Notes: a model not told the origin generated them from the letters alone. DNA of 64,000 bases from an uncultured bacterium (GCA_964627035.1 CAZVKN010000005.1:652-64651); one strand, 5' to 3'. Shown: positions 53,948 through 64,000, numbered from the stretch's first letter. Translations and numbers: made by a program.

Positions 53948-54742
53948 TTACGGTCGAATTATCCCGGCAAATCGAGCGTACCACAACCATAGCCACTCAC
54001 CCCATAATAGTGCTACGAGAGCACCTGCCGCCATATAGGGACCGAACGGCACTTTGTAAAATTTCCCCTTCTTTCCGCTTATGATAAAAACGGTTCCTAT
54101 CAATGCAGCGACAAATACCGATAGGATGAACATCTCAGCGGTTAAAAACGGTCCAAGGAACATCCCCATCATCCCCGCCATCTTAATATCACCCATCCCT
54201 ACTCCGTCACGCTTGAACAGCAGCTTACCGATTGACCAGTTCAGCAGCAGAAATCCGATCCCAAGTGCACCGCCGAGGAACATCGTCAGTAAGTCATCCC
54301 GCTTCAGCAGAAGCGTTAGCGCTACAGCCAATATCGCTCCGGTCAGAGTGATCGGATTAGGCAGCCTTTTTGTCTGAATGTCAATTACGCTCAATGCCAG
54401 CAGCAGTGCCGACAGGACACCATACAGAATAAGATCCCGGCTCCAGCCAAACTTCCACAGCATCAACATGAGCAAACCGCCCATGCAAGCTTCGACTGTG
54501 GGATAGACAACCGATATCGGTTTTTTACACTGTGCACACATCCCTCTCAGAAACAGATAACTCAGCAGCGGGATGTTCTGGTACGGCTTAATCGCCTGAT
54601 TGCAATGAACACAGTGTGAAGCGGGAAAAACGATGGATTCACCGCGAGGGATCCGGTAAATCACAACATTCAGGAAGCTTCCCATTGAGATTCCAATCAG
54701 GAACAGCACCGCATATTCAATCAGAGCGAATGGAATAATCAT
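53948..54742 (-). CDS. pilD: Prepilin peptidase (A24 family; type IV leader peptidase/N-methyltransferase)
   Basis: N-terminal tetra-Cys zinc motif (CVHCNQ...CAQCKK). Catalytic Asp contexts (SVID, GMGDIKM). Eight TM helices. Confidence 0.9.
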   Translation of the reverse strand: MIIPFALIEYAVLFLIGISMGSFLNVVIYRIPRGESIVFPASHCVHCNQAIKPYQNIPLLSYLFLRGMCAQCKKPISVVYPTVEACMGGLLMLMLWKFGWSRDLILYGVLSALLLALSVIDIQTKRLPNPITLTGAILAVALTLLLKRDDLLTMFLGGALGIGFLLLNWSIGKLLFKRDGVGMGDIKMAGMMGMFLGPFLTAEMFILSVFVAALIGTVFIISGKKGKFYKVPFGPYMAAGALVALLWGEWLWLWYARFAGIIRP

Positions 54743-54810
54743 AATGGTCTAAGAGCAAAGAGGCACGGTATTCCCGTGCCTCTTTGTGGATAGAATCAAG
54801 TTCTTTCTTT

Positions 54811-56064
54811 CTACAAACCTTGATGGATTGCCATACCAAGCTTGAAGATCGGCAGGTAAATCGTCACGATGATGGACACCACCACCGCACCGATAGCGAC
54901 AATCATCATCGGCTCAATCAGCGATGTGAGCCGTTCAACCACCGCATCCACCTGCTTGGCATAGAAGTATGCCGCTTTATCAAGCAGTTTGTCCATCTCA
55001 CCGGTCTCCTCACCGGTTGCGATCAACTGGATCAGAGTTGCAGGAAACACATCCACCTTTTTCAAAGCGACTGATATTGCGAACCCGTCCTTAATCAGTG
55101 TCTTGCTCGTCTCGAGCCCGTGCACTATCACTCGGTTGCCCACCACGCGCTGAACGTGAGCTAACGATTCCAGAACCGGAACACCTGATCCGAGCAGGAT
55201 TCCGAATGTCTTGGCGAATTTGTTCATCAGCGAATAGTTCACCAGCAGTCCGAATACAGGAAAATGGAGTTTGATCGTGTCAAAGATCGTCCCTCCCTTC
55301 TCAGTCATTGACCAAAACCAACCTGCGAAGACAACAGCTATCGTCCCCAGCAAGAACGGGAAGAAGTTCTGACTGAGTAGTTGCGACAGCCCGACCAATG
55401 CTCTCGTCGGTCCGGGCAATCTTGCGCCGAACTTCGCATAAATTTCTGCGAATTGAGGCACGACAAAGAGCAGCAGCATCGCTACGATGACGATCATGAA
55501 AATCAGCACAAAGGTCGGGTATGACAACGCTGAAACCACTTTTCGCCTTGTGTCCGCCATTGTCTCGAGATAATCCGAAAGCTCTTCAAGAATCACATGG
55601 AGCGAACCTGAAACCTCACCGGCGTGCACCAATGCTGTGTACAGTCCATCGAATGTCCCGGGATTCTGAGCCAGAGCCTCTGAGAGTGACATCCCTTTTT
55701 TCAGGTCATTCGTAACTTTCGCTAAGATCTTGCGGAATCGCGGGTTCTTCTCTTCCACCATCAGGTTTGTCACCGCTTTTTCGATTGTTAAACCGGCGGA
55801 GAACATTGTGGACAGCTGACGGGTGAAGAACACCAATGTATTGAGTGGAATAAAATTCTTCCACTTGTCAATACTGGTTTGGATCTGTTCATAAACCGGT
55901 GGGAGCGCAGCGTCACTGACTTTCTGACGTATTTCCCGTAACGAAACTACCTTGAACCCTTTCTTTGACAGCGTTTGCATCGCTGCATCGAGGTTTGAGG
56001 CTCTTATCCGGTCTTCCCGTCGAGAGCCTTTAGAATCCGTTACTACATACTGGAATTGAGGCAT
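54811..56064 (-). CDS. pilC: Type IV pilus / T2SS inner-membrane platform protein (GspF/PilC family)
   Basis: Two T2SSF repeats (…LSTMFSAGLTIEKAV… and …FGILLGSGVPVLESL…). Three TM segments. 417 aa. Confidence 0.9.
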   Translation of the reverse strand: MPQFQYVVTDSKGSRREDRIRASNLDAAMQTLSKKGFKVVSLREIRQKVSDAALPPVYEQIQTSIDKWKNFIPLNTLVFFTRQLSTMFSAGLTIEKAVTNLMVEEKNPRFRKILAKVTNDLKKGMSLSEALAQNPGTFDGLYTALVHAGEVSGSLHVILEELSDYLETMADTRRKVVSALSYPTFVLIFMIVIVAMLLLFVVPQFAEIYAKFGARLPGPTRALVGLSQLLSQNFFPFLLGTIAVVFAGWFWSMTEKGGTIFDTIKLHFPVFGLLVNYSLMNKFAKTFGILLGSGVPVLESLAHVQRVVGNRVIVHGLETSKTLIKDGFAISVALKKVDVFPATLIQLIATGEETGEMDKLLDKAAYFYAKQVDAVVERLTSLIEPMMIVAIGAVVVSIIVTIYLPIFKLGMAIHQGL

Positions 56065-62974: not shown

Positions 62975-62981
62975 CTATGAA

Positions 62982-64000
62982 TTACTCGTTGTCATCCTGG
63001 GATTCTTCTTCCTCCCCCGGATGCAGGGCTTCGTGATAGCGTTCTTCAGCAGACTTAATCTCTTCCGATTTTCCAATGAACGTATTTGACGCATCTCCCT
63101 GACCCATCCGCGTATATTCATCCTCGATTATATGAGGTGTCACCTCAATAATCAAGTCCGTTTTAGTTGCTACTGCGACGTTGTAACGGAACAGCGGTCC
63201 GAGGAACGGCAGGTCACCGAGCAACGGAACCTTATGGGTTATCTTACCGGCAACGAGACTCATCAGACCGCCAACGATGATTGACTGATGATTCTTTACC
63301 CTGACCGTCATCTCCGCTTTTCTGCGGACAACACGCGGGATAGTCTGATCGGGACCGATAAATTCAAAGATTGAGCTGACTTCCGGAATGATTGACACAG
63401 TGATATAGCCGTCGCTGTTCACACGCGGTTCGATCTCGAGTTTGATTCCAACCTCTTCATCCTGCGTTGAGACCTGCCCGCCGACACCACCAGCACTTGT
63501 AACGTAAGGAACGACGTCAACCAGTTCGATCATCGCTTTCTTGGCATTCTGCGTCGAAACACTGGTATTTGCCAGCACTTCTGAATTGCTGTTTTTCAAC
63601 AGCCAGTCAAGCGCTATCTCCCAGATCGGCTGGCTTCGCCACAGCGTTCCAATATCGTCAATACGTTCGGTTTTCTGGAACGGCTGCAACTGAGTGCCGC
63701 CACCGGTTGTGGTTTGCGGTTCATTGTCCCCTTCAAACAGGAAGGTTGATGTGTTCAAAGAAAGCTTTGACCAGTTGATACCAAGTCTCTCCTCTTCTTC
63801 GACAGACACTTCAATCAGACGAACTGAAAGTGTGATCTGCAGAACAGGCTGATCAATGTTACTGACGATGCGCTCGATGTCAGTCAGAACCTTTGGCGTT
63901 GCAATAACGAGCAGCTTGTTGCCGGAAGGGTCAACCTGAATATTTGCGGCGAAATCGCCGAGCAGGTCACTGACTTCCTTGGCATCAGCATACTGCAGAG
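62982..64000 (-). CDS. Secretin (GspD/PilQ family), C-terminal part only; the N-terminus lies beyond the window edge
   Basis: The secretin C-domain motif VPLLGDLPFLGPLFRY and LGINW-type beta-strands. The frame is open upstream of the tracked GTG to the end of the window. Acidic C-terminal tail. Confidence 0.75.
   Translation of the reverse strand, partial: LQYADAKEVSDLLGDFAANIQVDPSGNKLLVIATPKVLTDIERIVSNIDQPVLQITLSVRLIEVSVEEEERLGINWSKLSLNTSTFLFEGDNEPQTTTGGGTQLQPFQKTERIDDIGTLWRSQPIWEIALDWLLKNSNSEVLANTSVSTQNAKKAMIELVDVVPYVTSAGGVGGQVSTQDEEVGIKLEIEPRVNSDGYITVSIIPEVSSIFEFIGPDQTIPRVVRRKAEMTVRVKNHQSIIVGGLMSLVAGKITHKVPLLGDLPFLGPLFRYNVAVATKTDLIIEVTPHIIEDEYTRMGQGDASNTFIGKSEEIKSAEERYHEALHPGEEEESQDDNE

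Follow-up and report, generated by a model that had tools for sequence, protein, structure and literature searches.

Large lipoproteins encoded with or beside a secretin machine are known from type II secretion systems (T2SSs), as exemplified by PulA of Klebsiella, SslE of Escherichia coli and InvL of Acinetobacter baumannii (PMC9245377, PMC12802150). InvL is an invasin-like lipoprotein adhesin built from immunoglobulin-like (Ig) domains, and its display at the surface requires the T2SS secretin (PMC9245377). In the slime nozzles of cyanobacteria and myxobacteria, and in Hps- and type IV pilus (T4P)-linked secretion, a PilQ-type secretin is associated with the export of a non-protein polymer (PMC12475490). 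We describe here a predicted type IVa pilus (T4aP) gene cluster in which the genes for an Ig-domain lipoprotein and for a Wza-like OPX protein stand between pilQ, encoding the secretin, and pilB, encoding the extension ATPase. It occupies positions 53,948 to 64,000 of a 64,000-nucleotide stretch of DNA from an uncultured bacterium (GCA_964627035.1 CAZVKN010000005.1:652-64651; the window), and continues beyond its end. In the literature searched no description was found of an OPX protein or an Ig-like lipoprotein inside a pil cluster; the genome paper of Caldithrix abyssi gives the cluster one line, 'Pili IV cluster Cabys_2584-2567' (PMC5317091).

The T4aP systems of Pseudomonas aeruginosa and Myxococcus xanthus have all the core genes that are present here, likewise arranged in blocks. 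The present cluster differs in that it forms a single locus, in which two additional genes have a fixed place between pilQ and pilB, that its PilQ is short and lacks AMIN domains, that its PilB carries an MshEN domain, and that it shows no homologue of TsaP or of a PilF/Tgl-type pilotin. The OPX protein shares the PES/Poly_export domain and motif, the repeated SLBB domains and the presence of a terminal helix with Wza of the E. coli group 1 capsule (PDB 2J58) and with the classes of OPX protein that have been defined (Saidi et al., bioRxiv 10.1101/2022.02.11.480155). Its SLBB units number four, compared with two in Wza, its helix is more hydrophobic, and it has neither a lipobox nor a match to Wza_C; moreover its gene immediately follows that of the secretin in a pilus operon, and no PCP, Wzx/Wzy or ABC genes are adjacent. 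With the slime nozzles the comparison runs the other way, since there the link between secretin and polymer is experimental and the pil operon contains no OPX gene (PMC12475490), whereas here the link is genomic and biosynthesis genes are lacking.

Like InvL, the lipoprotein is an invasin-like Ig-domain protein without a β-barrel anchor, and in common with PulA, SslE and InvL it has acidic or Asn-rich residues after the lipidated Cys (CDENN in this case). In contrast to those proteins it accompanies a T4aP with PilT and PilMNOP, with no GspN/PulN-like gene seen; it is built entirely of Ig-like domains and carries neither an enzyme nor a lectin-like cap. The intimin/invasin inverse autotransporters also have tandem Big_1 and Invasin_D3 domains, but here a lipid anchor takes the place of the N-terminal β-barrel and LysM regions, and no C-type-lectin-like tip was detected.

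Conservation of the genes between pilQ and pilB

The source contig of the window, a metagenome scaffold of 78.7 kb in ENA (L001), was retrieved by an exact match to the OPX protein (i.e. the product of the SLBB gene); a window coordinate is 72975 minus the L001 coordinate. The locus on this contig has 15 genes in the order pilin, pilT, three minor-pilin-like genes, pilM, pilN, pilO, pilP, pilQ, the OPX gene, the Big_1 lipoprotein gene, a hairpin, pilB, pilC and pilD. Of this locus the window contains the distal two thirds.

Close full-length homologues of the OPX protein (34-45% identity) lie in the same gene block in every assembly looked up. One genome per species was scanned, and the genomes were then searched by tblastn with all 15 L001 proteins. 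At each of the 15 pilus-linked loci so obtained, every gene of the block that is reached by the contig is present, in the colinear order pilin-pilT-3 genes-pilMNOPQ-SLBB-Big_1-pilBCD. The titles of some of these genome records read Calditrichaeota, Caldithrix, Ca. Hatepunaea or Ca. Tariuqbacter; Ca. Hatepunaea and Ca. Tariuqbacter fall within Ca. Electryoneota. There are 65 SLBB homologues at greater distance (from Zixibacteria, Ignavibacteria, Cloacimonadota, KSB1, Eisenbacteria, Latescibacteria and others), and not one of them lies within 10 kb of a pilus gene; those inspected adjoin Wzz, Wzi, Wzy_C, glycosyltransferases or sugar-nucleotide enzymes. A further full-length OPX homologue (36% identity) occurs on a chromosome labelled 'Thermoplasmatales archaeon' (L025, CP070798.1), which is probably a mislabelled or contaminated metagenome-assembled genome given its bacterial relatives of the Fibrobacterota-Chlorobiota-Bacteroidota (FCB) type.

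Homologues of the Big_1 protein led to loci of the Marinimicrobia type (L092 and L094), where an Ig-like lipoprotein of 838-854 aa is encoded between pilQ and pilB and there is no SLBB gene. The gap between pilQ and the lipoprotein gene is just 8 nt in L094 and 28 nt in L092, and orthology with the lipoprotein of the window is indicated by colinearity over residues 600-975. Linkage of the SLBB and Big_1 genes to pilBCD and the secretin, on which an earlier note made from the window alone had hung its interpretation, is thus borne out among relatives: both genes are found at one and the same place in all Calditrichota/Electryoneota-type loci examined, and in the Marinimicrobia-type loci Big_1 alone occupies it.

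A census was made by a metagenome scan seeded with a PilQ alignment, with addition of the related genomes. Loci were classified by tblastn, and only those with a whole pilQ-to-pilB interval were counted (n = 40). The order pilQ-SLBB-Big_1-pilB was found in 21 of these and the Marinimicrobia-like order pilQ-Big_1-pilB in 18, and at no locus was pilQ directly followed by pilB (0/40). The lipoprotein gene is therefore present in 39 of the 40 complete intervals. The single exception has the order pilQ-SLBB-pilB (1/40; L122, 9776-13070), with 55 nt from the SLBB match to pilB and the Big_1 gene absent, while pilQ and pilB are intact. Because the intervals are of the pilQ-Big_1-pilB and pilQ-SLBB-Big_1-pilB types and none is pilQ-pilB, the Ig-like lipoprotein gene is, on the evidence of gene order, the older resident, found in loci of Marinimicrobia, Calditrichota and Electryoneota type. 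The OPX gene would then have been inserted later between pilQ and the lipoprotein gene, on the Calditrichota/Electryoneota branch. Judged in the same way, the two accessory genes are neither an obligate pair nor a chance juxtaposition.

We note that in some Marinimicrobia-like loci (L148, L152, L160, L163 and L166) the interval from pilQ to pilB is 4.7-5.9 kb compared with the usual 2.7 kb, and the Big_1-like matches cover its distal part only. These long gaps may contain a larger Ig-like protein or an additional gene.

The origin of the inserted gene was addressed with a neighbour-joining tree of 75 non-redundant open reading frames (ORFs). The 17 pilus-linked OPX sequences form one clade beside OPX genes of Cloacimonadota, and these sister-group genes adjoin Wzz, Wzi, glycosyltransferases or sugar-nucleotide enzymes. 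The pilus-linked clade contains two subclades, each well supported (59/60 and 60/60 bootstraps). The inserted OPX gene is thus predicted to derive from an FCB lineage of OPX proteins that is otherwise housed in polysaccharide clusters.

The spacing of the genes is tight. The distance from the pilQ stop to the first possible SLBB start ranges from -13 to about +100 nt in 16 loci; it is 7 nt in L001, and in L010 the two overlap. At the other end, 12 nt after the stop codon of the lipoprotein gene, there is a GC-rich stem-loop on the minus strand (57962-57986) with a stem of 11 bp and a loop of 3 nt. Its calculated stability is -27.1 kcal/mol (z = -4.8 versus shuffled sequences). In 11 of 14 related loci the Big_1 stop codon is closely followed by a strong hairpin of unrelated sequence. 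A scan for consensus promoters and terminators over 53.4-64 kb gave the same counts as shuffled sequences; it missed the GC hairpin because this has no T-tail. The hairpin is probably a terminator or processing site separating a pilMNOPQ-OPX-Big_1 unit from pilBCD. Since the spacing after pilQ is tight and the hairpin is positioned only after Big_1, the OPX and Big_1 genes can be assigned from the sequence to the transcription unit of pilMNOPQ, with pilBCD forming the next.

Intact ORFs with conserved motifs are present for the accessory genes in all loci. Their products are the fastest-evolving proteins of the cluster. When the proteins of the window and its contig were compared with those of close relatives the median identities were 85% for PilT, 80% for PilC, 77% for the pilin, 76% for PilB, 73% for PilM, 68% for PilO, 66% for PilQ, 57% for PilP and 50-61% for the minor-pilin-like genes, falling to 42% for the OPX protein and 39% for the Big_1 protein.

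The Ig-domain lipoprotein

The lipoprotein gene (57998-61192, minus strand) encodes 1064 aa. Five Big_1 and three Invasin_D3 domains are matched in Pfam, and the lipobox is VTG/C followed by DENN. The AlphaFold2 (AF2) model (pLDDT 83) is all β from residue 40 to the end, forming about 9-10 Ig-like sandwiches with no other domain. Neither Pfam nor the model gave any sign of a β-barrel, LysM or C-type-lectin-like tip. A sequence search of the PDB found nothing, and Foldseek with the model returned generic multi-Ig matches only (e.g. hydin and α2-macroglobulin, TM ~0.1), which gave no functional clue.

Among relatives the length of the protein ranges from 838 to 1373 aa. A lipobox was found in the orthologues with an intact N-terminus (36 scanned, of which 3 were partial), one of the boxes being a non-canonical INC. 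Among 33 distinct sequences following the Cys, the P2′ residue is Asp in 17 and Glu in 5 (i.e. it is acidic in 22 of 33), and Asp, Glu or Asn occurs within P2′-P4′ in all 33. The export signal of Bacteroidetes lipoproteins is likewise acidic. Because the length is variable, evolution is fast and the residues after the Cys are acidic, the protein may be a rod on the cell surface. For comparison, the T2SS-dependent lipoproteins of Acinetobacter have ND(N/D) or GGG at P2′-P4′, and PulA requires Asp at P2′, a residue that in E. coli leads to retention in the inner membrane (PMC12802150).

The OPX protein

The gene between pilQ and that of the lipoprotein (61277-62974, minus strand) encodes 565 aa as first read. 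The true start is likely to be the ATG at 62953, giving a protein of 558 aa. Pfam matches are to Poly_export (PF02563; 47.9 bits, cut-off 28) and SLBB (73 bits). The Poly_export motif is YMLGPGDVLEFSVWG, and its residues are invariant across the pilus-linked clade. A profile made from this clade matched Wza chains in the PDB (E = 2e-20). The AF2 model of the monomer (pLDDT 85) comprises a signal peptide, the PES domain, a disordered acidic linker, four β-grasp (SLBB) units and a terminal helix of 24 residues. Wza structures were the top Foldseek matches to this model (E ~4e-16, probability 1.0), with GfcC and ComEA lower down. By profile and by predicted fold, then, this is an OPX protein.

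No lipobox was found in the OPX protein. The C-terminal helix is kept throughout the family, including those members that are located in polysaccharide clusters, and it is mostly hydrophobic. The tail gave no Pfam match to Wza_C (PF18412) even at E <= 10.

The core pilus machine

Downstream of the hairpin are three genes on the minus strand. The gene pilB (56086-57828) gives Pfam matches to T2SSE (440 bits) and to an N-terminal MshEN domain, pilC (54811-56064), encoding the inner-membrane platform protein, matches T2SSF in two stretches (192 bits), and pilD (53948-54742), encoding the prepilin peptidase and N-methyltransferase, matches A24_N_bact (114 bits) and Peptidase_A24 (59 bits). PilB scores 595 bits against the NCBIfam PilB model, which is under the equivalog cut-off of 675. 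Its N-terminal ~64 residues score 53.7 bits against the NCBIfam MshE-type cyclic di-GMP motif domain (cut-off 38), and the presence of this domain suggests that extension of the pilus is under the control of cyclic di-GMP.

The window ends within pilQ. The part included (62982-64000, minus strand) is the C-terminal 339 codons, i.e. residues ~134-472 of 472, and matches Pfam Secretin with 126 bits. The start is at ~64400, 400 nt past the end of the window, and the whole gene of 472 codons is at 8575-9993 in L001. The complete protein comprises STN, one Secretin_N and Secretin (125 bits) domains, with no AMIN domains; its score against NCBIfam PilQ (172 bits) is below the curated cut-off.

On the same strand of L001 upstream of pilQ there is a gene for an N_methyl pilin of 140 aa (792-1214), and outside the window too is the gene for PilT (352 aa, 1264-2322; 481 bits with NCBIfam pilT_fam, whose cut-off is 319). 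Pilin-like hydrophobic N-termini are seen in a further three proteins encoded upstream of pilQ (175, 219 and 491 aa). PilM and PilO, encoded directly upstream of the secretin, are recognized by Pfam (PilM_2, 143 bits; PilO, 32 bits). PilN and PilP of L001 were identified solely from position, size and conservation, although PilN of L092 has a weak Pfam match. The pilN gene of L001 (6697-7302, equivalent to ~65673-66278 of the window) is broken into ORFs of 118 and 69 aa in different frames, whereas in the relatives it is undivided and encodes 204-214 aa. The break is due either to a frameshift introduced in assembly or to the gene being a true pseudogene; in the latter case the pilus machine of this organism would be inactive.

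The pilin, PilT and PilMNOP genes upstream of the secretin on the source contig lead us to assign the core machine as a conventional T4aP locus. The host is an uncultured FCB-group bacterium of the Calditrichota or Ca. Electryoneota type. No Pfam matches to GspC, GspL or GspM were found in the cluster, PilM, PilO and PilT being present instead. All of the features tested for a T4aP are present, and from its gene content the locus is neither a T2SS nor an inverse autotransporter.

The six ORFs that the earlier note had described all lie on the minus strand at the places stated, and their domains have strong support in Pfam. This extends to the identities given to PilB, PilC and the prepilin peptidase, and to the Poly_export motif and SLBB domains of the 565-aa protein, which are seen in the translation and in Pfam; the GC hairpin between the lipoprotein gene and pilB also stands. 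The note went on to suggest that the SLBB and Big_1 genes stand in for pilMNOP, gspC/L/M or pilins, perhaps in an undescribed trans-envelope machine with an SLBB periplasmic conduit and the Ig-domain lipoprotein as a surface component or substrate. The idea of a conduit that substitutes for the alignment subcomplex falls with the standard pilMNOP set, and the pilins, directly upstream of the secretin in L001; the apparent replacement was an artefact of truncation, because pilQ begins 400 nt past the window end. The statement that pilins are lacking holds for the window, where a six-frame scan found no prepilin motif, but not for the locus, which has the N_methyl pilin and the three minor-pilin-like genes upstream.

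Possible functions of the accessory proteins

The explanation that we favour, to which we would give about an even chance on the basis of the sequences and of analogy with characterized systems, combines a surface lipoprotein made together with the pilus, and possibly delivered by PilQ, with an OPX protein that exports a pilus-associated polysaccharide. The lipoprotein would be a lipid-anchored rod of ~9-10 Ig domains on the cell surface that is produced along with the pilus and acts as an adhesin or a spacer. It may exit through PilQ by means of the pilus machine, in the way that T2SSs display PulA, SslE and InvL. The OPX protein would form its own Wza-type exit channel, with the genes for polysaccharide synthesis located elsewhere, and its co-expression with the pilus could couple pilus-dependent adhesion or motility to the release of matrix or slime. 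Exopolysaccharide (EPS) and pilus function are coupled in Myxococcus.

Several observations weigh against this explanation. Asp at P2′ is a signal for inner-membrane retention in E. coli, so by analogy the lipoprotein could be periplasmic. The helix of the OPX protein is more hydrophobic than amphipathic, and with no match to Wza_C it may reside in either membrane. Neither the 64-kb window nor the sequence up to 10 kb away from the OPX gene was found to encode a PCP (Wzc/Wzz/KpsE), flippase, polymerase or glycosyltransferase. The OPX protein therefore has no visible partner, and this is the main weakness of reading it as an export channel. The union of the two OPX subclades is found in only 42-46% of bootstraps, so that a single origin of the pilus-linked OPX proteins rests mainly on synteny. 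For every member, function is deduced from homology, position and precedent, and no direct precedent for T4aP-dependent display of a lipoprotein was found in the literature, the precedents being T2SSs.

The lipoprotein might alternatively be a scaffold that is periplasmic or associated with the secretin, i.e. a giant membrane-anchored pilotin-like or TsaP-like factor required in these FCB lineages for PilQ to be assembled, localized or stabilized. The lipoprotein gene comes immediately after pilQ in the ancestral arrangement of L094 and L092, a frequent position for secretin helpers, and it is missing from only one complete interval; the cluster has no visible pilotin or TsaP homologue that would fill this role, and the P2′ Asp would be in keeping with a protein held at the inner membrane (PMC12802150). 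We nevertheless consider this unlikely. A protein of such variable length and domain number that is the least conserved of the cluster is more typical of an exposed stalk adhesin, a rod of ~10 Ig domains, put at roughly 35-40 nm from the domain count, is estimated to be longer than the typical width of the periplasm, and in L122 pilQ and pilB are intact without the lipoprotein gene.

A further explanation, which is what survives of the trans-envelope machine proposed in the earlier note, would integrate the OPX protein into the pilus machine. A periplasmic stack of OPX rings would dock on or beside the short PilQ, so that the pilus machine and its secretin double as the exit for a polysaccharide, or the ring would extend or stabilize the vestibule of the secretin. 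This is attractive in the light of the work on secretins as slime nozzles (PMC12475490). The translational proximity of the OPX gene to pilQ, retained across two phyla, the lack of a PCP partner encoded nearby, and a PilQ of 472 aa with only one N1 domain and no AMIN domains are all in keeping with it. Yet the clusters of Marinimicrobia type have an equally short PilQ and do without an OPX gene, and the protein has lost none of the features of its free-standing FCB counterparts, the C-terminal helix included. It also diverges faster than PilQ and PilP (42% identity compared with 57-66%), which is unusual for a tightly docked ring, and a pilus fibre would not fit into the ~3-nm lumen of Wza. 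On balance such an arrangement seems to us improbable. An acidic tail at the C-terminus of PilQ was considered as a dock specific for the OPX protein and was rejected, as the PilQ of OPX-less Marinimicrobia has the same tail. We hold out equally little hope for the joint proposition that in Calditrichota and Electryoneota the OPX protein forms a physical link between polysaccharide export and the pilus secretin and that the Ig lipoprotein is a dedicated cargo displayed by the T4aP.

Lastly, a stray EPS exporter and an unrelated adhesin might simply hitch-hike in a pilus locus, given that OPX homologues sit in ordinary polysaccharide clusters, that a Big_1 family member is also found away from pilus genes (L093) and that each gene can be missing without the other; but this is improbable when position, order and strand are held in 40 of 40 intervals, down to ~42% identity in PilQ and across three phylum-level lineages, with tight spacing after pilQ, a position-conserved hairpin that closes the unit only after Big_1, and intact ORFs with conserved motifs at all loci. 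The fallback of the earlier note, a juxtaposed EPS pair, is accordingly too weak for the conserved linkage, and nor are the genes a pair, as each occurs without the other (L092 and L094 as against L122).

Neighbouring sequences

The pilus locus adjoins a dense field of genes for type IX secretion system (T9SS) cargo. Nine large proteins with a T9SS C-terminal sorting domain (Por_Secre_tail) are encoded in the window, at 370-33247 and 50378-53524. Two of these have a gingipain-like Peptidase_C25 domain and several have CarboxypepD_reg, PKD or LVIVD repeats; such a field fits an FCB-group host.

A palindrome TCATTCCYG-N6-CRGGAATGA occurs four times in the window when up to two mismatches are allowed (<=2; 0.01 copies expected), at 35310-35333, 44158-44181, 53699-53722 and 53738-53761. 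A tandem pair follows pilD closely downstream, and another copy is situated between the genes for isocitrate dehydrogenase and lexA. It resembles a repetitive extragenic palindromic (REP)-like element or a shared terminator.

The pilin gene is immediately preceded, in L001 1-463 and upstream (equivalent to >72500 of the window), by a gene for a protein of 651 aa with PMT_2 (i.e. a GT-C glycosyltransferase) and TPR domains. The TPR end is kept at that place in eight Calditrichota-type loci and is absent from the Marinimicrobia-type clusters. The product is possibly a glycosyltransferase for the pilin or the lipoprotein, and the gene would be a second one related to glycans gained by the lineage that gained the OPX gene.

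Implications

Marinimicrobia, Calditrichota and Ca. Electryoneota are abundant in marine water columns and sediments. These FCB bacteria have what is apparently an undescribed, phylum-spanning variant of the T4aP cluster, in which a lipoprotein gene nearly always parts pilQ from pilB and to which a Wza-like exporter has been added in two phyla. If PilQ does carry the lipoprotein to the surface, a form of display known for T2SS lipoproteins would also apply to a genuinely retractile pilus machine. Should the OPX protein cooperate with PilQ, the disputed part of secretins in polysaccharide secretion could be tested in the cultivable Caldithrix abyssi. Were the coupling of OPX protein and secretin true, it would be the first such link that is genetically hard-wired, and a handle on the part played by secretins in the secretion of exopolymer ('slime'). 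If neither holds, the cluster would be a tidy case of co-regulated adhesion genes.

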